Of a DNA stretch of 42,149 nucleotides, positions 8,710 through 41,900 are shown piece after piece; the stretch's first letter is position 1, and every line of letters begins with the position of its first letter. The stretch comes from an uncultured archaeon (GTDB lineage: Archaea > Altiarchaeota > Altiarchaeia > IMC4 > SCGC-AAA252-I15), in assembly GCA_964423225.1 (NCBI GenBank), contig CAYREE010000003.1:1-42149 (forward strand). The letters run 5' to 3'. The translations under genes were made by a program, and so were the position numbers. Below the pieces are notes generated by a model that worked only from the letters and a program-made list of their open reading frames with translations, was not told where the DNA came from and did no database searches.

Positions 8710-8710
8710 G

Positions 8711-12167: not shown

Positions 12168-13442
12168 TTAAGCTTCAACTATATCCGCTCCAATACTTGT
12201 CATTAAAGGCTTGAAATTCGGGAAGGTAACATCAACAAAATCTGCCCCAGTTATCTTCGTTGTCCCAGATGCAGACAAGCCAGCAACAGCAAGAGACATG
12301 ATAATACGATGATCATGCCAACCATCAACAATACCTCCTGAAAGATCCCCTCCTCTAATCGTCAGACCATCATCTCTCTCATCGATAGACGCGCCCATCT
12401 TACCAAGTTCAGATGCCATAGCCTTGATACGATCACACTCCTTTAAACGAGCATGAGAAGCATTAACAATCCGGGTAGTACCCTCAGCAAAACAACCCAG
12501 GACCGAAACAATAGGCACAAGATCCGGAGCATCGCTTAAATCAACTGTAATCCCAGTCAATGAACCCCCACCACAAACTTCAACTAGATCACCTAAAACA
12601 TTTATCTCAGCACCCATCTCAACGAGAATATCAATGATTTTCTTATCGGCCTGAAGAGAATTCTTAAATAAATTACTGACAACCAGCTTCGATTCCATAA
12701 GAGCGGAAGCAGAAAGAATGAATGCCGCACTACTATAATCACCCTCAACAACATACTCTGTAGGCTTATAAACCTGGCCACAAGCCACATGAAACTTCCG
12801 ATAATCCTTGTTCTTAACTTCAACACCAAAACAAGACAAGATATCTAGTGTGAGATCGATATATGGCCTCGATTTCAAGGATGTAGTCACTTCAACAACC
12901 GTATCTTGCAGGCCATACGGAGCCGCCATAAGGATCGCACTTATGAACTGGGAACTCACATCACCAGCAATACCACACTCACCACCCTTGAACGGACCCT
13001 TCACTGTATGAGGTGGATATCCACTAGTTGAAGTAGTATCCACTCCAAGATGAGATAATGCGTCAAGGAGTGGTTCGATAGGCCTGGATTTAATAGAGTC
13101 ATCTCCGGTTAAGCTTATCTTGGATTTTGACAAGGAGGCGATTGCAGTTAGAAGCCTTATTGATGTGCCAGAATTCATAAGATCCAATACTTTTCCCGGA
13201 TTGTTTATTTGACCGGAATTACCAGTGATATACATATGATCTTCTTCTTCGGTTATTATTGCACCAAGCTCTCTGCAAGCGTGTATACACGCATTTGTGT
13301 CTGCAGAGTAAAGTGGATGATGAATAATATTTTCCCCTTCAGATAGCATACCAGATATCACTGAACGTATAGTATAGCTTTTACTTGCAGGTGCATTTAC
13401 ACGCCCATCAATTTTCGTTGTTGGTTTGACTAGATAGTCCAT
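12168..13442 (-). CDS. aroA: 3-phosphoshikimate 1-carboxyvinyltransferase (EPSP synthase)
   Basis: 424 aa; PASKSYTIR, LMNSGTSIRLL, SSQFISAILMAAP, HDHRIIMSLAVAGL are classical AroA blocks. Confidence 0.9.
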   Translation of the reverse strand: MDYLVKPTTKIDGRVNAPASKSYTIRSVISGMLSEGENIIHHPLYSADTNACIHACRELGAIITEEEDHMYITGNSGQINNPGKVLDLMNSGTSIRLLTAIASLSKSKISLTGDDSIKSRPIEPLLDALSHLGVDTTSTSGYPPHTVKGPFKGGECGIAGDVSSQFISAILMAAPYGLQDTVVEVTTSLKSRPYIDLTLDILSCFGVEVKNKDYRKFHVACGQVYKPTEYVVEGDYSSAAFILSASALMESKLVVSNLFKNSLQADKKIIDILVEMGAEINVLGDLVEVCGGGSLTGITVDLSDAPDLVPIVSVLGCFAEGTTRIVNASHARLKECDRIKAMASELGKMGASIDERDDGLTIRGGDLSGGIVDGWHDHRIIMSLAVAGLSASGTTKITGADFVDVTFPNFKPLMTSIGADIVEA

Positions 13443-13456
13443 TATATGAAGCCTTA

Positions 13457-16811: not shown

Positions 16812-16822
16812 GCTAAACAACC

Positions 16823-18226
16823 TTAGATGTTACAGATAAAATTAACGCCAGTCCTTATTAAAGAGGGTAGCTCGCGTACTCCAAAGATGCGCAACATATT
16901 TGTAATAGACCTAGGACGCAGATAAAAACGCCTATAAGCCTTATTTCTTGCCGATTCAAGATCCATATCCTTTGAAATCACATTATTTGCATACTCGAAT
17001 GAATCCCAGCTTTTCCCATCTAAATCATCTTTATGTCGTTCATACAAAGGGGACCCTGGAAACGGTGTAGCAACATAGTATTCCGCAAAATCCAGGGGAA
17101 GATCAAGGGAAAACCTTAGAGTCTGCCGGATTGTATCTATATTCTCCCCAGGTAAACCGAACACAAAATGGCCGACCGTCGCAATCCCTGCATCATGAGC
17201 AAGTTTGACTGCCCTCTTAGAATCTTCAACCTTTATCCCTTTTTTAATATTGTCAAGCACTTCCTGGCTGGACGACTCTAATCCAAATGATATCATCCAA
17301 CATCCAGAAGCCCTCATCAGCTCAAACATTTCGGCATCAACAGTATCCACCCTACTATTACAGAACCATCTGACATCCAATCCTTCATCAATGATCGCCT
17401 GACAAAGGTCTAATACATGTGATTTATCAAGTGTGAAAGTTTCAGCGAAAAAATATAGATCTCTGACCCCAAGTTTCACAGCATGCTTGATCTCCCGGAT
17501 AATGTCTTCAACACTCCTTTTCCTGTATTTCCGACCATAGTAGAATGGGGCCACACAAAAACTACATTCAAATGGACAACCCCTACCAGTCGTGATCAAT
17601 ACATACTTACGACCGAAGACTGGTACTTTATAATTAGACAAGTCAACAAGATCCCAGGCTGGAAGCGGCAGACAAGACAAGTCCATAGCCGACCTTGATG
17701 GATTTTTAATTAGCCTTCCATTCTTGACATATGCAATTCCCGTGACTTTTTCAATCGGTTTAGAAACAAGGTCTTCTAGGGTAGATTCCGGTTCTCCGAA
17801 AATAACTCCATCTACATGACCATGATTTAGAACAGTCTCCCATAGGCTTGAAGCATGGACACCATAGACAAATACCCTACAATCCACTAGCTCACGGATT
17901 CTAGATATGAAATCCATATCATGCAGGAAAGTTGGCGTAGTAGTATTTAAGACAATCAAGTCCGGTTTGAACGATTTGATTTCATCAAGGACTGAAGACT
18001 CAATCATTGAAGCCCCCATAGCATCTATCAGCTTGACATCAGCAACATCCCTGATCATTGAGGCCATATATGCGAGTGTCATAGGAGGATAGACCGATGA
18101 GAAAACAGCTGCCTTATGCTGGCAACGACCTTCTTTCACATACAAGGATTCTGCCGGAGGGTTCAGTAATAATAGCCTAATTTTACACCACCCATAAACG
18201 AGTATAAATGGATTATTATACCTCAA
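16823..18226 (-). CDS. B12-binding-domain radical SAM enzyme (class B rSAM)
   Basis: The N-terminal Rossmann-like IRLLLLNPP...PPMTLAYMAS...DLIVLNTTTP is a cobalamin-binding-domain pattern. TTGRGCPFECSFCVAP is the CxxxCxxC rSAM cluster motif. The start codon is uncertain: the track uses the TTG at 18224-18226 and there is no in-frame ATG near the N-terminus. Confidence 0.8.
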   Translation of the reverse strand: MRYNNPFILVYGWCKIRLLLLNPPAESLYVKEGRCQHKAAVFSSVYPPMTLAYMASMIRDVADVKLIDAMGASMIESSVLDEIKSFKPDLIVLNTTTPTFLHDMDFISRIRELVDCRVFVYGVHASSLWETVLNHGHVDGVIFGEPESTLEDLVSKPIEKVTGIAYVKNGRLIKNPSRSAMDLSCLPLPAWDLVDLSNYKVPVFGRKYVLITTGRGCPFECSFCVAPFYYGRKYRKRSVEDIIREIKHAVKLGVRDLYFFAETFTLDKSHVLDLCQAIIDEGLDVRWFCNSRVDTVDAEMFELMRASGCWMISFGLESSSQEVLDNIKKGIKVEDSKRAVKLAHDAGIATVGHFVFGLPGENIDTIRQTLRFSLDLPLDFAEYYVATPFPGSPLYERHKDDLDGKSWDSFEYANNVISKDMDLESARNKAYRRFYLRPRSITNMLRIFGVRELPSLIRTGVNFICNI

Positions 18227-21816: not shown

Positions 21817-23364
21817 TCAGGGTACATAATAAATAACAGACTTCCTCGCTATCTGATTCTTTTTAATCTGCTTTTTTGCATCCCTAATATTCTTTTTCTT
21901 AACCGAGTCGAATACTTTTGTCCAAGCGTCAGGGATACTCCTCAAACATTTTTTACTCGCTATTAACTTCTTCGCCTTCGGGGGTCTAAGATTATCCAAG
22001 AGTATATATGCATCCGATACTTTCTTACAATTAAGATTTTTTAACGACCTTGCTTCAAGACTAGAATCTCCCCCAGAATATATGTCAATCCAGTATCTGG
22101 CTAACTCTGAAGCATAGACAACACCCTGCTTATCATTAAGGAAAACAGCGGCTTCATGCATTCCATAAGTCCTCGTAGAATCAAAAAGCCAAAGCCTATA
22201 AGTCACAAATAAAGAGCTTAAAATAAGGGAAAAAATTAAAAGTTGTATGAATAATCGCCCCCTCTCAGAACTCCGATATAACATAATCATTGCACGAGAC
22301 ATAAGGATCGAGGCTACTGGCATCAATATCGACAAGTATCTCGCATCACGGTGTAGAAACTTAATAGGGCTAATGCTCTGCAAACCAAAATTCAGATAAA
22401 ATGCTAGGACAAAAAACCAGATGAGCAGGTATACAGTTGACTTATCTTTTCTAAGAAGGATATAAAGCAGTGATAAAACGATAACATACCCGTAAAAACC
22501 ATATAAAGGCGCTCTAATAAACTTAAAATCACCCATAAATCTATCAAGATTAAGTTCATATGAATCCGGTTCGACTGAGAATAGAATACGAGGATAGAAG
22601 ATAAGAAAATCCCTATTAGCGTTTGCATTATAATAATCTTGGATTGCCTTGAAATTATCTGCTGGATTTATACCATGGACTAAATAGACTGTTATCTGCA
22701 ATGTGAAGATTATCAAAAATCCGAGTACGAAATAACCAAGTCCGATCTCAATCCTCTTTGATACAGCATACCGATACAAACCAATGGCTATTACAACGAA
22801 TATGAAGAAGGCTCCTGAGAGTTTCACTAGATAGGCTATGCCAGAGACTAATCCTGAGATAAGAAGATTAAATGACATGTTTTGCCCATCCTTTAATCCC
22901 CGTAATAAAAAAAATGCTGACAAGGTCATATAAAATTCCAGGGGAATATCAGGCATAATCCAGGTAGCCCAAATAATATTGAAAGGTACAAGTGAGATAA
23001 AAAAGGCTGCGAGAAGAGATGTGTCCTCATCATAATAGAGTCTTGAGATCTTATAGACCAGGGGTATCAATAGCAGTGAAAATATCAGAGACTGTGAAAC
23101 AAGAACCCATACATTCATGCCAAAAACCTTCACTAATATATATAGTGGGAAGATCAGCATGATACGACTGCCAAAAACACCTGTAAGTTCATTCAAATCA
23201 AATTCTTCATCCAGGGTATAGAGTATCCGGATATATTCAAAGGTATCACTCAAGTTGACTCCAACAAAAAAATAAAGCCTTACCAGAAGAGAGACCAATA
23301 CAATCAATGATAAGATGATCAATACCTTCGAATCCTGTAAACGTTTCTTTTTATCTTTCATCAT
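21817..23364 (-). CDS. GT-C-fold polytopic glycosyltransferase (PMT_2/ArnT-like), paralogue group 1, tandem copy B
   Basis: 515 aa; LLVRLYFFVGVNLSDTFEY, ATWIMPDIPLEFY, C-terminal ...SVIYYVP. Collinear with 23367..24920 over its full length. Confidence 0.75.
   Translation of the reverse strand: MMKDKKKRLQDSKVLIILSLIVLVSLLVRLYFFVGVNLSDTFEYIRILYTLDEEFDLNELTGVFGSRIMLIFPLYILVKVFGMNVWVLVSQSLIFSLLLIPLVYKISRLYYDEDTSLLAAFFISLVPFNIIWATWIMPDIPLEFYMTLSAFFLLRGLKDGQNMSFNLLISGLVSGIAYLVKLSGAFFIFVVIAIGLYRYAVSKRIEIGLGYFVLGFLIIFTLQITVYLVHGINPADNFKAIQDYYNANANRDFLIFYPRILFSVEPDSYELNLDRFMGDFKFIRAPLYGFYGYVIVLSLLYILLRKDKSTVYLLIWFFVLAFYLNFGLQSISPIKFLHRDARYLSILMPVASILMSRAMIMLYRSSERGRLFIQLLIFSLILSSLFVTYRLWLFDSTRTYGMHEAAVFLNDKQGVVYASELARYWIDIYSGGDSSLEARSLKNLNCKKVSDAYILLDNLRPPKAKKLIASKKCLRSIPDAWTKVFDSVKKKNIRDAKKQIKKNQIARKSVIYYVP
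22916..22945. repeat. 30-nt block identical to 24466-24495 (GCTGACAAGGTCATATAAAATTCCAGGGGA on the + strand)
   Basis: Direct comparison of the two tandem GT-C genes shows the same offset (1550 nt) for a second identical 17-mer (23003-23019 and 24553-24569). Confidence 0.85.
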
Positions 23365-23366
23365 TA

Positions 23367-24920
23367 TCAGGGTACATAATAGATCACTGACCTTCTTAAT
23401 ATCAGATTCTTCTTGACCTTCAAATCATTGGTGATAACAGATGATTGCTTAGTGGAATCAAATACTTTCTCCCAATCAGAGGGAGAATTCTTCAAGCATT
23501 TTTTCCGGGATATAACGTTCTTTGTCTTAGGCGGGCGTAGATTATCAACGAGTACATATGCATTTGAGACCTTGTTACAATTAAGCTTCTTAATACCCTT
23601 GAAGGTCAGATTATGTTCTTTTCCACTATAGGTTTCGATCCACTGGCGAGCCATCATAGAGGTATATATCACTCCGTTCTTCTCCTTAATGAAATCAAAT
23701 GCCAACTGCATCCCATATGTCCTTGTTATGTCAAAAAGCCATAAACGATGAGTGACATACAATGAGCTTACGATAAGAAAGATAAAAATGATTGCTGTAA
23801 GATATCTGCCATTCCTAGAACTCCTATAAACTGTTATCAAGAAACGAGACATGATGATGATTGCTACCGGCATAAGGATTGATAAAAACCGGGCATCACG
23901 GTGAATAATCTTGAAAGTCTTCAAGCTTTGTATCCCAAAATTCAGGTATAAAGCCAATACAAACAACCATATTAGAAGCGGTATGGTCGACGTATCACGT
24001 TTATAGATTAGATAAAGAAGGGACAATACTATCACATAGCCAAACAATCCGTAGAGAGGAGCTCTTATAAAACCAAAATCACCGAAATACCTGTCGATAT
24101 TCAATGTGTTTGTTTCAGGATCGATTGAAAACAATATCAATGGATAATAGAATAAATGCCCACGATTAGCTCTTACCTCATAATAATCCTGGATATTCGA
24201 ATAATTCTTGACAAGATCAATACCTGAATAAATATATGCGCCCATCTGAAGCAGGAATATCACTAAAAAACCAATGAAAAAAAAGCTTAGTCTCCATTCA
24301 ACCTTCCTTTTAACGAAATAATTATATACTCCAAAAGCGATTACAACAAGGATGAAAAAAGCTCCAGTAACCTTTGTTAAATATGCGATACCAGTGAAAA
24401 ACCCAGATATAAGAGAATATGAGGAAAGCCTATCCTCATGCTTAAAACCCTTTAATAAAAAGAAGGCTGACAAGGTCATATAAAATTCCAGGGGAACGTC
24501 AGGCATAAGCCAAGAAGCCCAGATAATGTTAAACGGGATTAATGATATTAAGAAGGCTGCGAGAAGAGAGGTCTCCGTGTCATAATAAAGACGCGATAAT
24601 TTATAGACAAGGGGTATTAACAACAATGAGCATACCATCGACTGGGATACTAACAACATTATATTAACGCCAAAAATCTTTGTAAGGAGAAAAGGCGGAA
24701 TAATCATCATAATCCTACTTCCAAAAAGCCCAGACAAATCTTTAATCTGGAAATTCTCTTCAAGCTCATAGATTATCCTAAGATAAGTGTAGGAATCACT
24801 AAGGTTGATGCCGATAAAATAATAAAGACGAATAAACAAGGAGACTATCATAATCAATAAAATGATGTAAAAAGCATTCAAACCACTACCTTGTTTCTTC
24901 ACGGATTTATTAGATTTCAT
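23367..24920 (-). CDS. GT-C-fold polytopic glycosyltransferase (PMT_2/ArnT-like), paralogue group 1, tandem copy A
   Basis: 517 aa; LFIRLYYFIGINLSDSYTY, ASWLMPDVPLEFY, C-terminal ...SVIYYVP. A 2-nt spacer separates it from the downstream copy. Confidence 0.75.
   Translation of the reverse strand: MKSNKSVKKQGSGLNAFYIILLIMIVSLFIRLYYFIGINLSDSYTYLRIIYELEENFQIKDLSGLFGSRIMMIIPPFLLTKIFGVNIMLLVSQSMVCSLLLIPLVYKLSRLYYDTETSLLAAFLISLIPFNIIWASWLMPDVPLEFYMTLSAFFLLKGFKHEDRLSSYSLISGFFTGIAYLTKVTGAFFILVVIAFGVYNYFVKRKVEWRLSFFFIGFLVIFLLQMGAYIYSGIDLVKNYSNIQDYYEVRANRGHLFYYPLILFSIDPETNTLNIDRYFGDFGFIRAPLYGLFGYVIVLSLLYLIYKRDTSTIPLLIWLFVLALYLNFGIQSLKTFKIIHRDARFLSILMPVAIIIMSRFLITVYRSSRNGRYLTAIIFIFLIVSSLYVTHRLWLFDITRTYGMQLAFDFIKEKNGVIYTSMMARQWIETYSGKEHNLTFKGIKKLNCNKVSNAYVLVDNLRPPKTKNVISRKKCLKNSPSDWEKVFDSTKQSSVITNDLKVKKNLILRRSVIYYVP
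24466..24495. repeat. 30-nt block identical to 22916-22945
   Basis: See 22916-22945. Confidence 0.85.
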
Positions 24921-26387: not shown

Positions 26388-26393
26388 TTGTTA

Positions 26394-27953
26394 ATGATAG
26401 ATGAAATAATGGATAAACCAGGTAAGAGACATATAATCATCATCATACTATTCGCCTTGCTGATAAGAATCGTATTTCTTGTAGGATATAATCTGTCTGA
26501 CGACCTCGGATACGCCGAAACTGCAGGTATCATCATTTCAGGAAAAGAATATGTGTCTACAACAACCACGTTCTACCTGGTATCAAACATGCGATTGTTG
26601 ATGGTCTATCCAATAGCATTATCATTCAAAATCTTTGGTGTCAACGATTATTCCCTTGTAATATATCCCTTATTATGCTCAATTGGAGGTATCTTCATAA
26701 CCTATAAACTTGGCGAGATGCTCTTCAACAAAGAGACAGGCATCCTCGCAAGCCTACTTCTTTCCTTTTATCCAATGGATGTGATCTATGCTACATGGGC
26801 TATGCCCGACGTGCCGATAGCTTTTTTCATGGCATCCGCCACATACTTTTTTTTAAAAGCCGAAAAACTCCGGGAAAATGAAAAATACTCGATCAAAGGA
26901 ATAAACATCAATAAAAGAGGAGTCTTATTGGTAGTTACCGGACTCATAATCGGTGTTTCCTACCTGATAAGGGTCTCAGGTCTAATGATCCTATTAGTCA
27001 TAATAACATACATCCTTTATCGAACATGGATTACAAAAAGAATAAAACTGGATTATTGTTGGATACTTACAGGTATCCTAATCATAATATTTCTAGAAGC
27101 GTGTTTTTACTACACTCAATTAGGGAGCATTGATGGATTAAGCCTAAGATATAAAGCCATTGAAGATACTTTTGGATCCACACCAGGCTACCATGACCAG
27201 TATTATTTCTTAAGAGGTATGCTTAATTTAGACTACGAAAACAATTTCATGTGGGAGAACAGATATGATGTGCATTACGGACTCTACTATTATCTGATAA
27301 TCCCCGCAATAATAATCTGTATTCTAACAAGGGATAAAAAAGCCTTCCCCGTGATAATCTGGTTGATTGCATTATTCCTATGGTCAAATTATGGGTCAAT
27401 GAGCATTACAAAATATGTCCTAATACACAAGCTACACAGACATATGACAATAATAGCGATACCATCCATGCTAATACTATCCAAAGTCATTATCGACAGG
27501 TTCTATAACAAGAAATCCATTATTCCAAGGACGATCGGCTTGCTTATAATAATCGCACTATTTACCACCTCAATTTTTTATATTTCAAACAGGTACGTGT
27601 ACTTAAAAGCCTCAGTACATGACTTCACACTAATGCATACAATATTAAAAGACTTAGACGACAAACCGATTTATGGCGATCCAGTCGTACGAACCCAATT
27701 GAAATACAAATTCAAATATAAGAAAAATGAATTGATCAGAACAATTGAAAATGTTAAAGAATGCGATGAGATAAAAGACGCATATGTGATAATGAAGGGT
27801 TCGCGCGGATTTGTTGACAATGAATTCTTTATCAATTCAATACCAGAATGCATGTATGAGCCACCCTCAAACTGGGATCTGATAGAGATTATCAAAGGCC
27901 CAAAAATAGATTTTTTTAGCTCATATGATCCAGTAGTATACTATGTCAGATAA
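26394..27953 (+). CDS. GT-C-fold polytopic glycosyltransferase (PMT_2/ArnT-like), paralogue group 1
   Basis: About 519 aa (track start is the TTG at 26388; first ATG at 26394). LLIRIVFLVGYNLSDDLGY, ATWAMPDVPIAFF, and a C-terminal domain with C-x28-C as in 9597..11132, its closest paralogue by eye. Confidence 0.75.
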   Translation: MIDEIMDKPGKRHIIIIILFALLIRIVFLVGYNLSDDLGYAETAGIIISGKEYVSTTTTFYLVSNMRLLMVYPIALSFKIFGVNDYSLVIYPLLCSIGGIFITYKLGEMLFNKETGILASLLLSFYPMDVIYATWAMPDVPIAFFMASATYFFLKAEKLRENEKYSIKGININKRGVLLVVTGLIIGVSYLIRVSGLMILLVIITYILYRTWITKRIKLDYCWILTGILIIIFLEACFYYTQLGSIDGLSLRYKAIEDTFGSTPGYHDQYYFLRGMLNLDYENNFMWENRYDVHYGLYYYLIIPAIIICILTRDKKAFPVIIWLIALFLWSNYGSMSITKYVLIHKLHRHMTIIAIPSMLILSKVIIDRFYNKKSIIPRTIGLLIIIALFTTSIFYISNRYVYLKASVHDFTLMHTILKDLDDKPIYGDPVVRTQLKYKFKYKKNELIRTIENVKECDEIKDAYVIMKGSRGFVDNEFFINSIPECMYEPPSNWDLIEIIKGPKIDFFSSYDPVVYYVR

Positions 27954-27960: not shown

Positions 27961-28761
27961 TTATTTCACACAGAAATCTTCCCGCATACCCTGCATCCCA
28001 GGACATTCGCAAAGCCTATTCGTATCCATATAAACATTGACTAATCCCTGGATGCAAGTATAAGAATAATCCCTGATATTAATACAATCCGATAACATGG
28101 CGCACGGATCCTCTCCATAAGCCCTGTTTAAGATATGTCCCATACATAGGCCGAAATGATGATAACAAGTGTCAACTGCTTGTGGATTTGTGTTGATGAG
28201 ATCATTATGAACTGTCTCGCAAAAATTTAATGATAAGTATTTATCTTTGTTGCAGACCAGTTCCTGGATATGTCCGATACAATGATGTTGGAATATATCT
28301 GAATTTAGACATGATTCATACGCATTTTCAAAGTTGTCTTGGACAATTGCTAATTGCTCTGCATTTTTAAAAAAACATTCGCTTCGCCAAATTTGATCTT
28401 CAACAGAATTGCACATTTTATTCACATTATCCTTGATTTCTTGATAGTTTGGCGTCTCGCGGATAATATGATTGGAGACCTCGATGATGCAGTGGCTCTT
28501 TAAATGAGTCCTCTTTATCTTGTAGCAGTAATCCAAACCCTTTGTATAGTTTATATTGTAAGAATAACTTGATTTTAGGAAATAACAGTAATCACGGTAG
28601 TTATCAGTAAATTCGTCACAATTCATTGAAACACGATAGTTTTCAGATATGCTTAGTAATTGATAGGAATAATATACGGTTATCAACAGGGTAAAACACA
28701 TTAGCCCATAGGCTATGATCTGTCGTCTCTTACTATTTTGTTTTCTTGCTTCTTGATCCAT
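27961..28761 (-). CDS. Membrane-anchored Cys-rich protein (18 extracytoplasmic Cys, mostly C-x9-11-C pairs); same family as 6820..7437
   Basis: 266 aa; N-terminal basic region plus TM (IIAYGLMCFTLLITVYY), then repeated C-x10-11-C units (48/59, 79/91, 117/129, 151/161, 170/181 ...). Its start lies 1 nt after the upstream stop. Confidence 0.6.
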   Translation of the reverse strand: MDQEARKQNSKRRQIIAYGLMCFTLLITVYYSYQLLSISENYRVSMNCDEFTDNYRDYCYFLKSSYSYNINYTKGLDYCYKIKRTHLKSHCIIEVSNHIIRETPNYQEIKDNVNKMCNSVEDQIWRSECFFKNAEQLAIVQDNFENAYESCLNSDIFQHHCIGHIQELVCNKDKYLSLNFCETVHNDLINTNPQAVDTCYHHFGLCMGHILNRAYGEDPCAMLSDCINIRDYSYTCIQGLVNVYMDTNRLCECPGMQGMREDFCVK

Positions 28762-28762
28762 T

Positions 28763-29245
28763 CTAATTAGTCCTAAAGATAAATGATCTGCCGATCTCCG
28801 ACGTACATGATGCCTTAAGAGAATATTGAGATATCTTAGTGCATAGGAGATTTAGTTTTGTCATGAGTCTTTCAAAACCGAGCATTTCCTCTTTGTTTTT
28901 GTTGTGATAATTGACTAGAACAGTGTGAACAAGTTCATAATAGCAGGCATCCCTGATAGTCTGATCCTTGATTTGACCGCATATCTGCTCCGACTTTTCT
29001 GGATCCACTAATATCAGTTTAAATGCAGTATCTGCAAGGCATCCATTAAACTCTAGTTCGTTTGATTGTTCGTCACATTCACTTGTTGAAGTATTACTAA
29101 ACGGATTTATTATTAGGATAAAGTTTACGATAAAAAGCAGGAGTGTAAGGGCAAGTGGAAGATAGCTATTTTTGAATCCATCACCACCATCATCTTTCGC
29201 AGCATCAAGTTTCTTTTTCTTCATTTTTTTACTACCACCAATCAT
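28763..29245 (-). CDS. Membrane-anchored Cys-pair repeat protein (3 pairs); same family
   Basis: 160 aa; Lys-rich N-terminus, TM (LPLALTLLLFIVNFILII), Cys pairs 57/69, 89/101, 135/147 (each C-x11-C). ATGA overlap with the GT2 stop. Confidence 0.6.
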   Translation of the reverse strand: MIGGSKKMKKKKLDAAKDDGGDGFKNSYLPLALTLLLFIVNFILIINPFSNTSTSECDEQSNELEFNGCLADTAFKLILVDPEKSEQICGQIKDQTIRDACYYELVHTVLVNYHNKNKEEMLGFERLMTKLNLLCTKISQYSLKASCTSEIGRSFIFRTN

Positions 29246-29907
29246 AAGACTTCCATAATAATGCGTTTTAATATACGCCAGCCATCACTAATCGTCCCAA
29301 GCTTTCCCACTCCAGACTTTCGTGCCTTCTCAAAACTTGGTACTTCAAGAGTCCTTAACTTGTTTTTAGCAGCTTTAATAGATATTTCAGTTTCAATACC
29401 AAAACCATCTTCAGTAAGTTCAAGGTCTTTTATAACCTCTCGTCTAAAGGACCGGTATCCGTAACAGAGGTCTGAATAATTTGTCCTCCATAAAGTATTT
29501 ACCATTTTTACGAACATCCAGTTGCCAAACTTGCGTATTAGACTGATATCCTCACTTCCTCCACCTTGTATGAACCTAGAGCCCATACAAATATCATAAC
29601 CCGCTTCTATACCTGCGATAAGAAGTATTAGCTCGCTTGAAAGATGTGAGCAATCAGCATCCATCATAATAATAATGTCTCCTTTACCTTCGTTCATACC
29701 GATTCTGAGTGCAGATCCCTTCCCTTTATCATCAAAAAGGACGGTTAATCCCTTATCCTCTGCTATTTTAGCTGTATTATCCTTTGAATACCCATCGACG
29801 ATTATTATCTCATCGATGAAATCCGGTAGGGTTCCCAGAACAACAGGTAGGTTTTCCTCCTCATTTAACGTAGGAATGATTACTGTTATGCTTTTTCCAT
29901 AAAACAT
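29242..29907 (-). CDS. GT2-family glycosyltransferase, dolichyl/polyprenyl-phosphate sugar synthase-like (DPM1/AglD-type catalytic domain, no TM)
   Basis: 221 aa; ITVIIPTLNEEENL, IIIVDGYSKDNT, IIIMMDADCSH (DxD region). The short soluble GT-A architecture is typical of polyprenyl-P-mannose/glucose synthases. Confidence 0.8.
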   Translation of the reverse strand: MFYGKSITVIIPTLNEEENLPVVLGTLPDFIDEIIIVDGYSKDNTAKIAEDKGLTVLFDDKGKGSALRIGMNEGKGDIIIMMDADCSHLSSELILLIAGIEAGYDICMGSRFIQGGGSEDISLIRKFGNWMFVKMVNTLWRTNYSDLCYGYRSFRREVIKDLELTEDGFGIETEISIKAAKNKLRTLEVPSFEKARKSGVGKLGTISDGWRILKRIIMEVL

Positions 29908-32539: not shown

Positions 32540-33820
32540 TTATAAGGATAATCCAGCAGCCTTTAACCAGACTTTACCTTTTTCCACTATTTCATCCAGT
32601 TTTTCCCTTGTTCTGGCTTCAGCAGTTATCCGCATATAGGGCTCTGTGCCTGATGGACGAATCAACATCCAACAGTCTTCATCTTGCACTCGAACACCAT
32701 CGATCGTAGTATAGTCCATTGAAATAATATTTTCTAAAGAATCCATGATTTTCTCTTTCTCGGAATCTGGACATTCGAGCTTAAGCCTTACTACTGGATA
32801 AGAAGGTATCTTATCGATAAGATCATAAAATACTCCCTCATCAACCATCTTTACAGTCTTGGCGATAGTAGCTACTCCATCAGGATATATGTGGATATCA
32901 GGGAAAATGTATGTTCCAGACGGTTCTCCCCCAAATCCCGCATTATTAGCCCGAATACCATCTGCAACCGAAACATCACCAACAGGAACCCTCACTACAT
33001 TATCGCACATATCCTCGATACGCATACTAGCATCAACAGTGGTAACGACAGTCTTATGCCCGTAAGAAAGCGCAGTAAGAAATGAATCCCATTCTATCAG
33101 ACTACCATCCCCCGAGATCGCGCATGTCCTATCAGCATCCCCGTCATGAGCAAACGCAATATCAAAATCACCGTCTCCCACCAATTTTAAAGTATCTGAA
33201 AGATTGTTTTCAGTAGGCTCAAGAGGATGGGGAAAAACACCATCAGTATTATCGTTAATAACAGTAACATCACAACCCATCTCGGTTAAAAGCATAGGCG
33301 TTATCGTAGAACCACTCCCACCAGAACAATCAACCAATACACGCAAATTATTACGAACACATCCAACAGAACCAAGGACAAGTTCCATATGCTTTGAAAT
33401 ATAATCCTCACTACTCTGACAGCCCGAACCAGATGCAAACTCGCCCTGATCCAACATTCCCTCAAGCAACCCTTCTTCACCAGGACTAAATGCTCCCAAC
33501 CTACTCCAAAACTTAAAACCATTATAATCAGCGGGATTATGAGATGCAGTCACCATCACACCAACCCCATACTCACTTGTTGCAACACCAACAGTAGGAG
33601 TAGTAACAACACCAAGTTCAACAACATCCTTGCCAGTCGACAATACTCCAGAAATGAACGCACTCTCAATAAGCGGGCCAGAGATACGTGTGTCACGCCC
33701 ACAAGCAACAACTTTAGAATCAGTAGATGATCCCAACGCCTTCCCCAAATCAACTGCGAAATCAAGGGGTATGTCCGAGACCTTTCTCCTAATACCTGAT
33801 GTTCCAAATAATCCAGTCAT
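32540..33820 (-). CDS. Alpha-D-phosphohexomutase (phosphoglucosamine mutase / phosphomannomutase / phosphoglucomutase type)
   Basis: 426 aa; GTSGIRRKV, TASHNPADYNGFKF (phosphoserine loop), FAHDGDADR (Mg loop), GGEPSG, RPSGTEP (phosphate-binding loop). The sugar specificity cannot be read from the sequence. Confidence 0.85.
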   Translation of the reverse strand: MTGLFGTSGIRRKVSDIPLDFAVDLGKALGSSTDSKVVACGRDTRISGPLIESAFISGVLSTGKDVVELGVVTTPTVGVATSEYGVGVMVTASHNPADYNGFKFWSRLGAFSPGEEGLLEGMLDQGEFASGSGCQSSEDYISKHMELVLGSVGCVRNNLRVLVDCSGGSGSTITPMLLTEMGCDVTVINDNTDGVFPHPLEPTENNLSDTLKLVGDGDFDIAFAHDGDADRTCAISGDGSLIEWDSFLTALSYGHKTVVTTVDASMRIEDMCDNVVRVPVGDVSVADGIRANNAGFGGEPSGTYIFPDIHIYPDGVATIAKTVKMVDEGVFYDLIDKIPSYPVVRLKLECPDSEKEKIMDSLENIISMDYTTIDGVRVQDEDCWMLIRPSGTEPYMRITAEARTREKLDEIVEKGKVWLKAAGLSL

Positions 33821-34765: not shown

Positions 34766-34878
34766 CGTAGGATAAGTATTTTATTAGAAATTAATAAAAA
34801 GTGGATGAATAATAGATTACACGAGAAATCCAGGTATTATAACAGAATTAATCAATATACTGATGAGTTTTAATTCAG

Positions 34879-36210
34879 ATGACCAATGATAAAAACAGAC
34901 TTTATAAAAAGTATATAACAATCATCCTATCATGCTTGCTGATTGGTGAAATAGTATTTCTAATCCCAATAATCACAATAACAGAGAGGGTAGGTGATGA
35001 AGTATACTGGCTTCAAAACTCATATTTCTACTATCTATTCTTCATTGAAAAAGACGTATCGAACAGGGACTGGAGGGGTATGCATTCAATAGACCAACCC
35101 CCATTAGGAAAATACATTATGGGATTCGCATTAGATCAGATAAACGAAAAGAGGGTAACAAATTATAACGGACTAACAAGATGGCAGGAAGACTACATAA
35201 ATGAGAACATAATAAAGGTCAGGGAATGCCAGGAGGAAATATGTATACGATACAAGAACCTGATAAACGAGGGAAAGAGAAGGGGAGCAATCCCTAAGAT
35301 CACGCTAAAAGATATTTATGTGGGAAGGCTCGTATCCTATTCATTCACAATACTAACCCTCCTTGCCATTATCCTACTATGTAATAAAGTGTTTGATAGT
35401 AGTCTGACAGGAATAATCGCTTCACTAGTCTTCCTAAACAACCTCCTTACAATACCCACAATCATCCACGCATATGTAGATCCAATATGCTATTTTTTCA
35501 TGATTATGTCAGTCTACACGATGATACAGTTATATAAGAAAATCGAGTCTGAGAACTACAGAAAAACCGTGGAATATTCAATTACTACCGGGGTTCTAAC
35601 TTCACTTGCAATCAGTACGAAATTCGTTTCAATAAGCATGATAGCCACACTCGGAGTAATATATTCCATAGGTTTTATCCTTGCCCTCAGTAGAAAACGG
35701 ATAAAAACAATTAAAATAATATTCATCTCACTGATAATACTTTCTATAACAGGGATATTCACGTTCATAATCCTTAATCCATTCCTATACCAAAACCCGA
35801 TTAAAAACTCCATGACAATAATCCAACACCGTCAATTAGTGATGGACATCCAGACATATGCACATAACATAAAAAAACCAACAATAACCGAAAGGATGCA
35901 TACCGCATATATGAAGGGAATCCTACTAGACTCATCAAAACACAATAACTACTTGATGATAGTAATAAGTGGATTATTCCTCATTGGATTATCAAAACTA
36001 ATAAACAAAACAATAATAGAACTAAAGAAAGTCGCCTTGGGCCCCTATTCAATAATCATGATATGGATGCTGTCAACATACATAATACACGGCAACTTTG
36101 TGCATATAGAATGGAACAGATATTTCATGGGAATGGCACTTGCCACAAGCATGATAATAGCGTTAAGCATCCAAGAAATATCATCAAGATGTTTTACTGA
36201 AAATGGATAA
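34879..36210 (+). CDS. PMT-like GT-C glycosyltransferase (GT39-type motifs), tandem paralogue 1 of 3
   Basis: 443 aa, polytopic. The first loop carries GDEVYWL (DE at 34996-35001) and SIDQPPLGKYIMGF (35095-35112). Compare the eukaryotic/bacterial PMT DE motif and DVHPPL(A/G)K. Confidence 0.7.
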   Translation: MTNDKNRLYKKYITIILSCLLIGEIVFLIPIITITERVGDEVYWLQNSYFYYLFFIEKDVSNRDWRGMHSIDQPPLGKYIMGFALDQINEKRVTNYNGLTRWQEDYINENIIKVRECQEEICIRYKNLINEGKRRGAIPKITLKDIYVGRLVSYSFTILTLLAIILLCNKVFDSSLTGIIASLVFLNNLLTIPTIIHAYVDPICYFFMIMSVYTMIQLYKKIESENYRKTVEYSITTGVLTSLAISTKFVSISMIATLGVIYSIGFILALSRKRIKTIKIIFISLIILSITGIFTFIILNPFLYQNPIKNSMTIIQHRQLVMDIQTYAHNIKKPTITERMHTAYMKGILLDSSKHNNYLMIVISGLFLIGLSKLINKTIIELKKVALGPYSIIMIWMLSTYIIHGNFVHIEWNRYFMGMALATSMIIALSIQEISSRCFTENG

Positions 36211-37555
36211 ACAAGAGAATAATCACGTGAAAAAGATGTTAAACAGGTCTATCACAGATTATCTTGCCATCATAATCACAGTCTTTTTAATCCTTGAACT
36301 AGTACTAATCATACCCTCACTCTGGACGAACAGAAAGATAATAGATGAAGGATACTGGCTACACAGCTCATACTTCTACTATCTCTTCTTCATAAAAAAG
36401 GATATGGATCACAGAGACTGGTATAGCATGTATTCCATAGACCATCCACCACTAGGCAAATACATCATGGGATTCACGCTAGACATGATAAATAACAAAC
36501 GGATTGAAAACTATGATGGCCTGGCGAAATGGTTCGAACGATATAAATGCAAATCCAATCTATGCGATTATTTCCGAAAAAGAATAGATGAATACAAGCC
36601 AATAGGAAACATGCCAGAAATAACAATAGAGGACTTGTTTGTCGGAAGAATGGTATCATATACATTCACCGCATCAATACTGATTATCTTAGTAATTCTG
36701 GCCTCAATAACCTTCGATAAAAAGGCGGTTGGAGTGATAGCAGCCATGATATTCATAAACAACAAGGTAACATCGCCAATATTCCTGCATGCCTACATGG
36801 ATACTGCACCATATTTCTTCGTGCTAATAACAATAGTCTTCATAATCAAGACCCTGGAGAATATTAGAACCAATGATAATAGAAAAATAGTCATATATTC
36901 CATCTTCACAGGCATATTTGCCGTGCTTGGCCTAAGCACAAAGTTCTCTGCAAGCTATGTGATAATCACAATCATTATCATATACTTTACCAGCAGCCTA
37001 TTGGCATTGAGAAATAAGCAGAAGGCAAATGTAAAAATGTTCTTAAAATCAGCGTTTATCACCTCTATCATCGGGATAATCCTGTTTATAAGCCTTAATC
37101 CACTCCTATACAAAGATCCGATAGGAGGGATAAAACAGATGATCGAACATCGTCAGAGCGTAATATTCATCCAAAACCATTTCCTTGATGAACGAGTATC
37201 AGGCCTATATGAAAAAATCAGGATAATCTATTTGAAAGGCATACTACTAGACAGTAAAACAGGGTTTGGATTATTATCCATTACTCTAACAATATTATTC
37301 TTCCATGGATTATCAAACCTTTTGAAAAACATGAAGAAAGAAATAATAAAAGGCTATCTTGGCCAGTACTCAATAGTGACTATCTGGTTGGCAACATCAT
37401 ATATCTTCATAGGATACTTCGTCCACATGTCATGGAATAGATACTTCATAGGGATGGCATTGTCAACCAGCATAATAATATCCTATGCCATCATCAAGAT
37501 ACTCTCGGATTTAGAGGCAAATATCCTTGAGAGAATAGCGGATGATAAAACATGA
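36203..37555 (+). CDS. PMT-like GT-C glycosyltransferase, tandem paralogue 2 of 3
   Basis: 450 aa; IDEGYWL, SIDHPPLGKYIMGF. 8-nt overlap with paralogue 1 (ATG at 36203-36205; upstream TAA at 36208-36210). Confidence 0.7.
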   Translation: MDKQENNHVKKMLNRSITDYLAIIITVFLILELVLIIPSLWTNRKIIDEGYWLHSSYFYYLFFIKKDMDHRDWYSMYSIDHPPLGKYIMGFTLDMINNKRIENYDGLAKWFERYKCKSNLCDYFRKRIDEYKPIGNMPEITIEDLFVGRMVSYTFTASILIILVILASITFDKKAVGVIAAMIFINNKVTSPIFLHAYMDTAPYFFVLITIVFIIKTLENIRTNDNRKIVIYSIFTGIFAVLGLSTKFSASYVIITIIIIYFTSSLLALRNKQKANVKMFLKSAFITSIIGIILFISLNPLLYKDPIGGIKQMIEHRQSVIFIQNHFLDERVSGLYEKIRIIYLKGILLDSKTGFGLLSITLTILFFHGLSNLLKNMKKEIIKGYLGQYSIVTIWLATSYIFIGYFVHMSWNRYFIGMALSTSIIISYAIIKILSDLEANILERIADDKT

Positions 37556-38901
37556 GTAATAAAAAAAACTTCTACAAATCGATACCTAGTCCAAGAATCC
37601 AGGATTATGCCATTCCAATACTAGTTATCTTTCTTATATGCGAACTAATCATTATCTTCCCCTCCAATCCGCCGGAAATCATTATGGTTGATGAAATGTA
37701 CTGGCTCCAAAGCTCATACTACTACCACCTATACTTCATTGAAAACGACTTTACAAACAAAGACTGGAAAGACCAGACCGCGATCGACCAACCTCCATTT
37801 GGAAAATACTTGTATGGATTCGTACTAGACCTAGTCAATAATAAGAGAGTAACAAACAACCAGGGATTATACGAATGGTTCAGGATAGACATGGAAAGAT
37901 GCAAAGTGAGAAATCCAACCGACGTGAAAAAATGCGAATACTTCCTAAAGGAAGAACAATACGAGAAAGAATTAAGTATTAATAATATCGATGGTAAAGA
38001 CGTGCATCTTGGAAGAATAATAACATTCACATTTCTAGCAGGGATAATCATCGCATTAAATGCAATATCCCTGTTTTTCCTAAAGAACAAGCCAATAGGA
38101 GTGATTGCAAGCCTGTTTTTCATAAACAACACGGTAACATTAAAGACTATCATACCGACAACCGTTGACACCTTCTGCTATTTCATATCCACTATGACGA
38201 TAATAACGCTTATCATACTCCTTCAAAACATGGAAAAAAACAATCAAAAAAAGATAATAACCAAATCTATTGCATTAGGATTACTGCTCTCCATCGCATT
38301 AAGCACAAAACTAGTAACAGCATATAACGCAGTGACAATAACACTAGTATACCTCATTATCATCATCCTAAAGATATATGACAAGAAAAATCCGATGAAA
38401 CAACTAGTATCATTATCCATAGTAATACTAACCAGCATCACCCTCTTTATCGCATTAAACCCGGCATTACATACAGACACGTTTGAAACCATACAAAAAA
38501 CGATAATACTCAGGCAAGAAGCCATAGAATTCCATGCAAACTTCGTCCCAAACACGATACGAAACCCCAGCCAGAGAATTGACGCAATAATCTCCAAAGG
38601 AATACTACTTGACACAACAAAAGAAAACATCATCCTCCTACTATTCATCCTCATATCACTTCTATACGGAGTACGAAGACTCCTTAAAAACACGCAAGAA
38701 GAGATAAGCCACCGGAATATCGGACCCTACACGATAATTCTCCTATGGTCAATATCCGCATATACTGTGAACGGATACTTTGTACCCGTTGCCTTCGCGA
38801 GATATTTCATGGGAATGGTCTTATGCACAAGCATAATACTTGCAATAGGCCTCAATGATATAGCCTTAAAAATCCACGAGAAAAAGAATCCCAGCCCCTG
38901 A
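37552..38901 (+). CDS. PMT-like GT-C glycosyltransferase, tandem paralogue 3 of 3
   Basis: 449 aa; VDEMYWL, AIDQPPFGKYLYGF. ATGA overlap with paralogue 2. Confidence 0.7.
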   Translation: MSNKKNFYKSIPSPRIQDYAIPILVIFLICELIIIFPSNPPEIIMVDEMYWLQSSYYYHLYFIENDFTNKDWKDQTAIDQPPFGKYLYGFVLDLVNNKRVTNNQGLYEWFRIDMERCKVRNPTDVKKCEYFLKEEQYEKELSINNIDGKDVHLGRIITFTFLAGIIIALNAISLFFLKNKPIGVIASLFFINNTVTLKTIIPTTVDTFCYFISTMTIITLIILLQNMEKNNQKKIITKSIALGLLLSIALSTKLVTAYNAVTITLVYLIIIILKIYDKKNPMKQLVSLSIVILTSITLFIALNPALHTDTFETIQKTIILRQEAIEFHANFVPNTIRNPSQRIDAIISKGILLDTTKENIILLLFILISLLYGVRRLLKNTQEEISHRNIGPYTIILLWSISAYTVNGYFVPVAFARYFMGMVLCTSIILAIGLNDIALKIHEKKNPSP

Positions 38902-38941
38902 GTCTATTTATTAAGTGACGACCCCAAAATTATTTTTCACA

Positions 38942-41900
38942 ATGAATATAAAGCCTGTCGGAGACTATAAACCCGAGTATATAGAGGAGAATATTCTCAA
39001 GTATTGGAAAAAAGAGAGCATAATGGAGGAAACCCTGAAAGAACATAAAGACCGTAAGCTATTCTCCTTTCTCGAAGGGCCGCCCACTGCAAACGCGCCC
39101 CCAGCACTCCACCACGTAGAGGTTAGAGTCTTCAAAGATCTCGTGAACAGATACTACTATATGAAAGGCTATAATGTCCCTAGAAAGGCAGGATGGGACT
39201 GTCATGGCCTACCAGTCGAAGTACAGGTTGAAAAAGAATTGAAACTATCCACAAAAAAAGAAGTCATAGAATATGGGTTGGATAAATTCAATGAAAAATG
39301 CAGGGAAAGCGTATTCAGCCATATCAAAGAATGGGACGAACTGACAAGGAGGATGGCATACTGGATAGACCTTAATAATCCATACATCACTATGGACAAT
39401 GATTATATTGAAAGCGTCTGGTGGTCTCTAAAGAAAATATGGGAAAAAGACTTACTTTATGAAGGATACAGGGTCGTACCATATTGTGCAAGATGCGGTA
39501 CACCCCTTTCAAGCCATGAAGTCGCCCAGGGATACAAGAATATAAAGGAGACCACAGTGATAGTGGCATTCAGGGCTGTGGACAAGGATTATAGCTTCCT
39601 TGCCTGGACAACCACGCCATGGACACTCTTATCAAACCTTGCCCTAGCAGTTAATCCAGACATAAAATACGTTGTGATAAAATACAGGGGAGAAAAATAC
39701 CTCCTTGCAAAAAACATAGCTGAGATAAGATTTAAAGACGCTGAAGTCATCGAAGAAATCCTTGGAAAAGACCTTCTGGGACAGGAGTATCATCCATTAT
39801 TCAACCATTTCAAAGGAAAACTTGAAAAACCATCGTGGATGATCATACCCGGTGACTTTGTTACAACCGATGAGGGGACTGGAATAGTCCATATCGCCCC
39901 CGCATTCGGAGAAGACGACTATAACGTTGGAGTTGTGAACGACCTACCACTTGTCAATCCTATAGGAGAGGACGGATGCTTCACAGACCAAGTGCCAGAA
40001 CTTGCAGGAATGTTCGCAAAAGACGCGGATGAAAAGATAATACAGCTGCTAGATGATATGGGATATCTAATAACAAAATACCAGTATGAACACGACTATC
40101 CATATTGCTGGCGATGCAATACACCACTATTATACTATGCCATGAAATCATGGTTCGTCAAAGTCTCGTCAATAAATGAAAAACTGTTAAAAAACAATGA
40201 GAAGATAGCATGGTATCCAGAACATATCAAAGAAGGAAGATTCGGAAACTGGTTGGAAAATGCGAGAGACTGGGGATTATCAAGAAACAGGTTCTGGGGA
40301 ACACCCCTACCCATCTGGAAATGCGAAGAATGCGACAAACATGAAGTAATCGGAAGTAGAGACGAACTCATAGAAAAAGCCGAGGAGAATATAGATGAGA
40401 CTATAGACCTGCACCGCCCATACGTCGATAAGATACATATCAAATGCAAGTGCGGGAAAAAAATGAGGAGGGTAGAATACGTGATAGACTGCTGGTATGA
40501 TTCCGGGGCAGGATCATTCGCACAATTCCACCACCCATTCGAAAACAAGGAACAATTCACAGAAAACATGCCATACGACTTCATATCAGAGGCTACTGAC
40601 CAGACACGAGGATGGTTCTACACACTCCTAGTCCTATCAACAATCCTATTTGACAAACCAGCATATAAAAACTGTGTTGTAGGCGGGCTCCTACTTGACG
40701 ATAACGGCGAGAAGATGAGCAAGAGCAACAAGAATATAATCGATCCCTGGGAGCTATTTAACAAGGTTGGGGCAGACGCAGTCAGACTCCAAATGTGCTC
40801 ACAAGCACCATGGAATGCAAGAAGATTCGGGATAGACAGTCTGAACGAGACTGTCGTCCCATTATTAAGAACCCTATGGAACTGCTATCACTTCACAGTA
40901 AGATACATGATGCTCGACAACTTCGATGCAAGAAACGAAAAAATAGATGAAAACGAATTACAGATAGAGGATAAATGGATTCTAGACGTAGCAGACCTTG
41001 TCGTCGGAGAAGTATCAAAACAATTAGATGCAAACAACTTCCATGTAGCACTCACAACAATAAACAACTTCATCGTAGAAGACCTATCAAGATGGTATAT
41101 AAAACTAATACGAGACCGATTATGGCTAGAAGACACAGACGGAGTCATTAATCCATCAAAGAAGGCAGCATACATGACTCTAAACAAAGCCTTCGAAAAA
41201 ACATGCCTCATAATGTCTCCGCTCGCACCATTCATAACCGAAGAAATATACCAGAACATAATAAAAACCAGTGAAAAAAGCATACACCACATGCCATGGC
41301 CGAAACCAGGACACATTGACTCCAAGCTTATAGCTCAGATGAGCATAGCAAGAAAAATGGTTGAGGCAGGAGCAAACTGCCGACAACAAGCCAAGATAAA
41401 ACTACGATACCCCATAGAAAAAGTAACAATAATAGGGGATAAAACAGTGGCTGAATCAACCGAAACACTAAAAGAAGTGATAATAAAACAGTTAAACACA
41501 AAAACCATAGAATATGTTAAAGAAGTAAAAGAGATAGAATACATCGCAAATCCAGACTACAGTTTCATAGGCCCCAAATATGGAAAAGAAGCAGATAATG
41601 TGGCAAAAGCAATAAAAGAAAACCCAATAGAAGCGAAAAAAGCATATGAAACACGTAAAACAGTAAAGATAAGAGATTATGAAGTGGAGCCAGAAATGGT
41701 TTTAAGCGTATCAATAAACGTGCCAGAAGAATACGAGGCCACAGAATTCACGCAAGGAGACATTACAGGCATAATATTCATTGAAAAAGCAAGGAGTAAA
41801 AGCCTGATGAACGAGGCATTAGCTAGAGACCTGATCAGAAACGTCCAGAAACTAAGAAAAGAAAACGACCTGGAAGAAATGCAGAAGATAAGGATAACCG

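Follow-up and report, generated by a model that had tools for sequence, protein, structure and literature searches.

An overlapping gene triplet for GT-C glycosyltransferases related to protein O-mannosyltransferases in an uncultured altiarchaeote

Protein O-mannosyltransferases (PMTs; family GT39), such as yeast Pmt1, Pmt2, and Pmt4 or Rv1002c of Mycobacterium tuberculosis, are integral membrane enzymes of GT-C class A, the hallmark of which is a conserved Asp residue (DE/DxD) that opens the first extracytoplasmic loop and is followed by juxtamembrane helices (PMC12331936, PMC7801869). For the M. tuberculosis PMT, residues D74, D176, and R441/Y444 were shown to be essential, with the R441-x2-Y444 motif located in the PMT_4TMC part of the protein (PMC12331936). 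The acceptor groove of PMTs is built by loops 1, 4, and 5, and bacterial PMTs have no MIR domain (PMC12331936). PMT, TMTC, and TMEM260, which make up most of the characterised members of the PMT/PMT_2 clan, O-mannosylate proteins (PMC10214176, PMC7801869). In Archaea, the enzymes responsible for protein O-glycosylation are still called elusive (PMC8241124, 2021; PMC11607397, 2024), and no later paper naming one was found, in agreement with an earlier note on the DNA discussed here. This DNA, called the window below, is a stretch of 42,149 nucleotides from an uncultured archaeon of the Altiarchaeota (assembly GCA_964423225.1, contig CAYREE010000003.1, positions 1 to 42,149). Towards its end it carries three head-to-tail genes, T1, T2, and T3 (Table 1), for PMT-like membrane proteins. 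Two further metagenome assemblies carry the same contig and are nucleotide-identical over the triplet.

T1–T3 are very probably outward-facing glycosyltransferases that depend on a polyprenyl-phosphate sugar. Their assignment to an unnamed family of GT-C class A, which is a sister of the PMTs and not canonical GT39, is well supported. The acceptor is a more delicate matter: that these predicted catalytically competent enzymes act on protein is a tentative reading, to which we give somewhat less than an even chance, and its specific form, transfer to Ser/Thr residues of proteins, is held with similar reserve. The earlier note had described three paralogous polytopic proteins encoded with overlaps of 8 nt and 4 nt, and the open reading frames (ORFs), the junctions, and the 35–44% identity among the copies all agree with this description. 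The T1/T2 junction (8-nt overlap) reads ATGGATAA and the T2/T3 junction (4-nt overlap) reads ATGA. Compared pairwise with T1, T2 is 44% and T3 35% identical, with E-values of 1.7e-102 and 6.6e-73, far beyond chance.

All three proteins contain an acidic dyad followed by an aromatic residue (GDEVYWL in T1, IDEGYWL in T2, and VDEMYWL in T3) and, 32 residues on, the motif ID(Q/H)PP(L/F)GKY, as had been read from the sequence before. The conservation of residues was counted over 133 aligned family members, in T1 numbering. D40 is kept in 132 relatives, E41 and G82 in 130 each, and P74 in 125. Position 201 is occupied by D in 114 and by E in 14, while K248 is present in 132. Within the segment W412-x-R414-Y415-(Y/F)-L-P, the Arg is found in 124 and the adjoining Tyr in 131 of the proteins; W65, R150, N300-P301, and R318 are further conserved positions. 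Each of T1, T2, and T3 retains all these residues, and both the acidic and the PP-x-G-K motif are conserved in the homologues. The N-terminus is K/R-rich, the first transmembrane (TM) helix covers roughly residues 10–34 by hydropathy, and the DE dyad opens a loop of ~105 residues; short K/R-rich loops (224–232, 272–276, and 378–388) alternate with the loops bearing the conserved polar residues and, by the positive-inside rule, lie on the side opposite the dyad. In the AlphaFold2 model of T1, TM1 spans residues 4–34, TM2–7 residues 143–298, and TM8–10 residues 357–441, and TM1 is followed by helices 39–46, 49–56, and 76–89, a juxtamembrane feature of GT-C class A. The conserved polar residues all map to the extracytoplasmic side by hydropathy and in the model. 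The protein is thus predicted to have about ten TM helices, with the N-terminus in the cytoplasm and the dyad outside the cell, in the first extracytoplasmic loop where the earlier note had placed it. The two halves of this loop differ strongly. The first half, from DE to PP-x-GK, is conserved at 50–65% between the paralogues and, with 1.83 bits per column, is the best conserved part of the family, whereas the second half (residues 95–142) is conserved at 24–41%, contains indels, and at 0.52 bits is the least conserved. A cysteine pair is present in the variable half of every paralogue (C117/C122 in T1, C116/C121 in T2, and C117/C128 in T3) and may form an extracytoplasmic disulfide.

The model of T1, for which a 102-sequence alignment was the input, reached a predicted local distance difference test score (pLDDT) of 95.1 and a predicted TM-score (pTM) of 0.94. 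When it was compared by Foldseek with the PDB, Pmt4 came first (E 5e-4, TMq 0.55), followed by AglB and ArnT (TMq 0.53, root-mean-square deviation ~6.5 Å). Pmt4, AglB, STT3, ArnT, and Pmt1/2 were all matched with a Foldseek probability of 1.00 at TMq of 0.38–0.55, and all matches outside GT-C had TMq below 0.2, which confirms membership in the GT-C superfamily. The fold does not choose between PMT, ArnT, and oligosaccharyltransferase, but the sequence discriminates, because the family profile, searched against all solved structures, matches PMTs alone: Pmt2 (2.3e-13), Pmt1 (6.3e-13), and Pmt4 (2.1e-9). ArnT, AglB, and PglB did not appear in this search at E ≤ 1. In the alignments to Pmt1, Pmt2, and Pmt4, D201 falls on the Asp of ILLD (within R-x-I-L-L-D) and K248 on the Lys of S-x-K; D201 would correspond to D176 of the M. 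tuberculosis enzyme.

A genuine PMT (PMT 131 bits, PMT_4TMC 163.7 bits) is encoded in a metagenome-assembled genome (MAG) of Saccharibacteria, at locus L004, ~3 kb downstream of a family member. BLASTP aligns residues 21–105 of T3 with residues 2–76 of this PMT (E 8e-7) and pairs NPPEIIMVDEMYWL with NPPSVVF-DEVYY and ID-QPPFGKYLY with DLHPPFAKMVF. In hhalign, the family matches the same protein with 92% probability (E 6e-7), and DQPPvGKY falls on DLHPPFAKM. Relative to this PMT, 13 residues are inserted in the family between both loop-1 motifs, just behind the DE helix, and the second motif takes the form D-Q/H-PP-x-G/A-K. The proposed equivalence of the motifs to the DE and DVHPPL(A/G)K motifs of PMTs is borne out by both comparisons. 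In the same locus, a gene for a 310-residue GT2 is start/stop-coupled to that of the family member (the pair at 7054–9344), and the canonical PMT, with its PMT and PMT_4TMC domains, is found at 12637–14022.

The Pfam PMT model (PF02366, gathering cut-off 22.7) is matched by T1 with 26.7 bits and by T3 with 21.5 bits, and not by T2; the match is limited to profile positions ~86–236 of 245. None of the three matches PMT_2 (PF13231), PMT_4TMC (PF16192), or STT3 in Pfam. Among 102 relatives, PMT is matched by 88 (E ≤ 0.01), PMT_2 weakly by 43, STT3 weakly by 2, and PMT_4TMC by none. T1–T3 also lack the large C-terminal extracytoplasmic domain with the WWDYG motif that marks AglB/STT3 (GT66), as they end directly behind the last TM helix in the model. 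Of the proposal that the triplet is of GT39 type, the GT-C fold, the motifs, and the position of PMTs as the nearest relatives by sequence stand, while membership in GT39 proper does not, given the missing PMT_4TMC, the marginal PF02366 scores, and the occurrence of a family member beside a genuine PMT in L004. A MIR domain is indeed missing from T1–T3; this does not exclude a prokaryotic-type PMT, because bacterial PMTs lack it too.

Pfam offers no dedicated model for the family, and the only NCBI product name seen for it is the generic “phospholipid carrier-dependent glycosyltransferase.” An exhaustive hidden Markov model (HMM) search retrieved 1,912 cluster representatives with E ≤ 1e-3 (132 with E ≤ 1e-30); most span 420–490 residues and are matched over their full length. 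The family came to light through this search alone; word-indexed searches for homologues, whether started from T1 or from the family alignment, yielded hardly any matches, probably due to the low-complexity TM sequence. A fixed-spacing DNA pattern derived from the loop-1 residues was run over 185,579 species genomes and gave 49 loci, 40 of which were validated by the family HMM. These belong mostly to Verrucomicrobiota, Planctomycetota, Candidate Phyla Radiation (CPR)/Patescibacteria, and Omnitrophota; single loci come from Nitrospira, Elusimicrobiota, Chloroflexota, Myxococcales, and Thermodesulfobacteriota, and Spirochaetales and Proteobacteria are represented as well. The archaeal loci in this sample (L037, L052, and L059) are from Altiarchaeota only, two of the three from the MAG closest to the window, and their homologues are dispersed single genes amid housekeeping neighbours, 23–29% identical to T1–T3. 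With most members bacterial and Altiarchaeota the sole archaeal phylum found, the family cannot be called a general archaeal machine. In the ~50 other loci the gene is single-copy, with the exception of L053, a Gammaproteobacteria MAG with two divergent copies. The one neighbour that recurs is a short GT2 gene (228–310 residues), adjacent or start/stop-coupled to the family gene in at least eight loci (L004, L008, L009, L010, L011, L030, L031, and L062), and by analogy this pairing would be the usual one of a polyprenyl-phosphate-sugar synthase with its GT-C transferase.

Several loci contain fused or adjoining domains. In L009 (6494–8719), the family GT-C is fused to a prepilin-type (N_methyl + DUF1559) domain, and in L010 (996–3292), a protein of this prepilin type is encoded by the next gene. 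Both loci are from one metagenome, with a short GT2 preceding and HEAT-repeat and Reg_prop proteins nearby. The arrangement in L009 and L010 parallels that of pilA-tfpW. Two other proteins, P0091 (1297 residues) and P0040 (1082 residues), are fusions of a family member to a PMT_2-type GT-C, P0091 with an additional GH3 domain.

The mechanism we propose has three steps. A short, cytoplasmic GT2 resembling dolichyl-phosphate-mannose (Dol-P-Man) synthase would load a hexose onto dolichyl phosphate (Dol-P), the lipid-linked sugar would be flipped to the outer face of the membrane, and each of the three enzymes would transfer a single sugar to an extracytoplasmic acceptor, for which Ser/Thr residues of surface or secreted proteins are the leading candidates. 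As catalytic base, D40 is the likely residue, and K248 together with R414 probably holds the donor phosphate. The window has a GT2 gene 5 kb from the triplet, which had been taken for a Dol-P-sugar synthase relative; its Pfam assignment agrees, and among solved structures it is closest to the Dol-P-Man synthase of Pyrococcus (P. furiosus; 5mlz, E 5e-21), followed by ArnC and GtrB. By analogy, this GT2 probably supplies the lipid-linked donor and is shared with the other GT-Cs of the window.

A protein acceptor is suggested by several observations: PMTs alone are detectable by sequence among solved GT-Cs, loop 1 can be aligned position by position with that of a genuine PMT, and the fusion to, or adjacency of, a prepilin-type DUF1559 domain in L009 and L010 is a hint of the same kind. 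The hamus protein of Altiarchaeum is Thr-rich and probably glycosylated (PMC4460559). Another explanation is that T1–T3 add sugars from a Dol-P-sugar to glycans or glycolipids on the outer membrane face. The targets could be lipid-linked or protein-bound oligosaccharides, surface polysaccharide, or glycosyl-archaeol head groups, and three copies would then mean three linkages or three sugars. Enzymes working in this way include AglS, GtrC, ArnT, and mycobacterial lipoglycan GT-Cs. We regard this explanation as a substantial possibility that still falls below one half. Much of the evidence that weighs against a protein acceptor speaks in its favour. In the fold search, the lipid-directed ArnT and the Asn-directed AglB score nearly as high as PMT, so that even a model with pLDDT of 95 separates none of them. 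PMT_4TMC, the module that carries the R-x2-Y acceptor-groove motif in PMTs, was detected neither in T1–T3 nor in any of the 102 relatives, and the W-x-R-Y-(Y/F)-L-P segment aligns with PMT ...RVTYVHHYLP below threshold only. The coexistence of a genuine PMT and a family member in one Saccharibacteria genome means that the two are not interchangeable. The loop-1 acidic dyad is a general GT-C feature and not a sign of a protein acceptor, because ArnT (D55/E56) and EmbA (PMC7801869) as well as one PMT_2 paralogue in the window have it too. The neighbours of family genes add to this: a Wzx-type flippase in L001, an MBOAT + AlgX pair in L005, and two flanking PMT_2 GT-Cs along with a UbiA prenyltransferase in L006. 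The PMT_2 fusions of P0040 and P0091, with GH3 in the latter, point to a glycan context. The window holds eight GT-C genes, that is, the triplet and five PMT_2 GT-Cs scattered among housekeeping genes, together with sulfatase-fold and phosphodiesterase genes. The archaeal AglS moves mannose from Dol-P-Man to a protein-bound glycan and not to the protein itself (PMC3871713), and the membranes of Altiarchaeum contain mono-, di-, and tri-glycosyl-archaeols. A larger claim would make T1–T3 part of a second protein O-glycosyltransferase family, overlooked so far and separate from GT39, and the first enzymes identified for archaeal protein O-glycosylation, perhaps as a hetero-oligomer; it appears unlikely to us at present.

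Whichever the acceptor, the three enzymes are probably specialised on different acceptors or donors and not redundant, because they have the catalytic centre in common and diverge most in the variable half of loop 1; this pattern in the sequences would fit a diverged recognition of acceptor or donor around a common catalytic centre. It can be asked instead whether T1–T3 form an obligate hetero-oligomer like fungal Pmt1-Pmt2, with coupled translation ensuring equal subunits. The 8-nt and 4-nt overlaps favour coupled translation, all three proteins keep the catalytic residues, as Pmt1 and Pmt2 do, and fungal PMTs are obligate dimers (PMC12705809). However, start and stop codons often overlap in the compact operons of archaea, which by itself is no proof of a complex, and the single-copy state of the family elsewhere (apart from L053) means that a hetero-oligomer cannot be an ancestral requirement. 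We therefore consider an obligate hetero-oligomer improbable. That one or more copies are decaying, non-catalytic, or unexpressed, as might be supposed from the lack of any Pfam match in T2, is hardly credible, since all ORFs are intact and full length, the near-invariant residues are kept, the copies score 358–389 bits against the family HMM (T1 389, T2 374), and an identity of 35–44% between them speaks for long maintenance.

The history of the locus can be followed in related genomes. The adjacent gene for the replication factor C small subunit (rfcS) encodes a protein 83% identical to a homologue from a Candidatus Altiarchaeota MAG, and the named top matches are nearly all from Altiarchaeota. 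A taxonomic scan with the isoleucyl-tRNA synthetase by itself gave no match. In four related Altiarchaeota genomes, rfcS and the gene for isoleucyl-tRNA synthetase (IleRS) are divergent neighbours, and no family member was found in their 21-kb loci around this junction. In the closest relative (L013), the gap between both genes is only 185 bp. Because the relatives lack the triplet at the IleRS-rfcS junction, it is an insertion in the lineage of the window. In a neighbour-joining tree, T1–T3 group as ((T1,T2),T3), the trio being recovered with a bootstrap support of 88.5% and the T1+T2 pair with 72.5%. That the three copies arose inside this Altiarchaeota lineage, through two tandem duplications, is well supported by the sequence comparison. 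A recent foreign origin by base composition was considered and rejected, as the triplet, with a guanine-cytosine content of 0.35–0.37, matches the remaining genes for membrane GT-Cs in the window (0.36–0.38). In L014–L017, the IleRS-rfcS gap contains a small archaeal-type pilin/archaellin gene (Pfam Flagellin_arch-type) at the place where the window has the triplet. Upstream of T1, the AT-rich intergenic region (Table 1) is the presumed promoter region of the triplet. On the other side, the IleRS gene probably starts at ATG 38942 (MNIKPVGDY..., as in orthologue N-termini), which is likelier than GTG 38915, and the 40-nt gap after T3 holds TTTATTAA, a TATA-like element (window 38901–38942). Co-transcription of the triplet with IleRS was rejected on account of this start and this element.

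The earlier note had also pointed to a phosphohexomutase gene separated from the triplet by rfcS only. The gene itself is confirmed (32540–33820; Pfam PGM_PMM domains I–IV), but its proximity was rejected as functional evidence, since the same rfcS-phosphohexomutase pairing recurs in four relatives without the triplet and is conserved synteny. The adjacency of Trp/Tyr-tRNA-synthetase and GT2 genes likewise recurs without the triplet, in L013 only, and this proximity too is no evidence of a functional link. Two Cys-rich ORFs (266 and 160 residues; 27961–29245, minus strand), each with an N-terminal membrane anchor and no Pfam match, overlap the GT2 gene in the same direction. L002 shows this arrangement as well, and the encoded proteins could act as exported partners or as acceptors.

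The five PMT_2 GT-Cs of the window share with the family only the TM2–TM6 core (20–41 bits). Loop 1 reads N[LW]SD..Y in four of them and FDEDIY, within FDEDIYMQIAKEM, in the other. Single-sequence searches of solved structures with two of these proteins gave no match. The first of the five genes lies between those for fumarase alpha (8711–9580) and beta (11139–11717). Between 18924 and 26295, genes resembling those of exported enzymes, for a metallo-beta-lactamase fold protein, a type I phosphodiesterase, and a sulfatase-fold protein, are interleaved with two PMT_2 GT-Cs, and this block may be a surface-polymer modification cluster. On the minus strand (13457–18226), a NodU/CmcH-type carbamoyltransferase and a B12-binding radical SAM enzyme are encoded beside the second PMT_2 GT-C, and in L013 and L059 a similar radical SAM/B12 gene adjoins GT2 and GT-C genes. 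Modules with two small ORFs, the second EamA-like, before a large membrane protein occur in L015 (16215–19727) and L017 (18291–20527); the large protein is a PMT_2 GT-C in L015, where a GT2 leads the module, and has no Pfam match in L017.

Table 1. Features of the triplet, of related genes in the window, and of the corresponding gap in related genomes. Positions are those of the window unless another locus is named.
Feature	Position	Strand	Evidence or remark
T1, 443-residue GT-C class A glycosyltransferase of the PMT-like family	34879..36210	+	ORF, Pfam PMT, AlphaFold2, Foldseek, family HMM
T2, 450-residue paralogue	36203..37555	+	ATG 8 nt inside the T1 end; ORF, identity to T1, family HMM
T3, 449-residue paralogue	37552..38901	+	ATGA overlap with T2; ORF, identity to T1, PMT alignment
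T1 D40-E41, acidic dyad, predicted to be catalytic, that opens extracytoplasmic loop 1	34996..35001	+	Family conservation, bacterial PMT alignment; equivalent Asp essential in M. tuberculosis PMT (PMC12331936)
T2 equivalent of the dyad	36344-36349	+	
T3 equivalent of the dyad	37690-37695	+	
T1 D72-Y79 (DQPPLGKY), counterpart of PMT D-x-HPP-[LF]-[AG]-K	35092..35115	+	hhalign, BLASTP, P74 conservation
T2 equivalent of D72-Y79	36440-36463	+	
T3 equivalent of D72-Y79	37786-37809	+	
AT-rich intergenic region, 113 bp	34766..34878	.	Between T1 and divergent rfcS; sequence reading
GT2, 221 residues, Dol-P-hexose-synthase-like	29242..29907	-	Pfam Glycos_transf_2; best solved relative 5mlz
PMT_2 GT-C genes, 513-556 residues	9591-11132, 13457-15127, 21817-23364, 23367-24920, 26388-27953		Pfam PMT_2 with or without PMT
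Pilin/archaellin gene in the IleRS-rfcS gap	L014 9337-9921; L015 9342-9896; L017 9282-9872		

The family provides a concrete candidate for archaeal protein O-glycosylation that can be expressed and assayed. It comprises about 1,900 cluster representatives, occurs widely in bacteria that are poorly studied, and is repeatedly coupled to a GT2 resembling Dol-P-sugar synthases; knowing what its members glycosylate would close a gap in the map of GT-C enzymes. Under the larger claim named above, each of the three enzymes would serve different surface proteins of a double-membraned archaeon, and the bacterial members, with their coupled GT2 genes and in some cases pilin-like genes, would have pilin-like proteins of Planctomycetota, Verrucomicrobiota, and CPR as their targets. 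Should the acceptor be a glycan or a lipid, the family would be an ordinary addition to the many GT-Cs that decorate surfaces.

Among the described systems, AglS of Haloferax volcanii is archaeal and outward-facing and uses Dol-P-Man that is made by the GT2 AglD and flipped, which is the three-step logic proposed for T1–T3 (PMC3871713). AglS adds the mannose to an Asn-linked tetrasaccharide and not to protein, and it is likened to T1–T3 by description only. The Gtr systems (GtrA/GtrB/GtrC) and pilin glycosylation of the TfpW type resemble the loci of the family in that the genes for a short GT2 and a polytopic GT-C adjoin or overlap each other; in L009 and L010, moreover, the GT-C stands beside, or is fused to, a pilin-like protein. 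The likeness to GtrC and TfpW is one of gene arrangement alone, and beside the triplet no flippase of the GtrA kind was recognised. The modules in L015 and L017 resemble the arrangement of ArnC-ArnE/F-ArnT. The ArnT (GT83)/PMT_2 group, including TMTC1-4, shares with the family the fold, the loop-1 acidic dyad, and a GT2 partner like ArnC or GtrB; unlike this group, T1–T3 have no C-terminal periplasmic or TPR domain, and they have neither a PMT_2 match nor, through the family profile at E ≤ 1, a hit to ArnT. From the PMTs the family differs by its lack of PMT_4TMC, by the 13-residue insertion in loop 1, by W-x-R-Y-(Y/F)-L-P in place of R-x2-Y...HHYLP in the last outer loop, and by ~10 helices in the T1 model vs. 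11. The triplet and the PMTs agree in the GT-C class A fold, in both loop-1 motifs, and in two further conserved residues, an Asp in LLD and a Lys in S/T-K, and bacterial PMTs resemble T1–T3 in size and in the absence of MIR. The expected donor logic would also be the same, with Dol-P-hexose or polyprenyl-P-hexose provided by a GT2 of the Dol-P-Man-synthase type.

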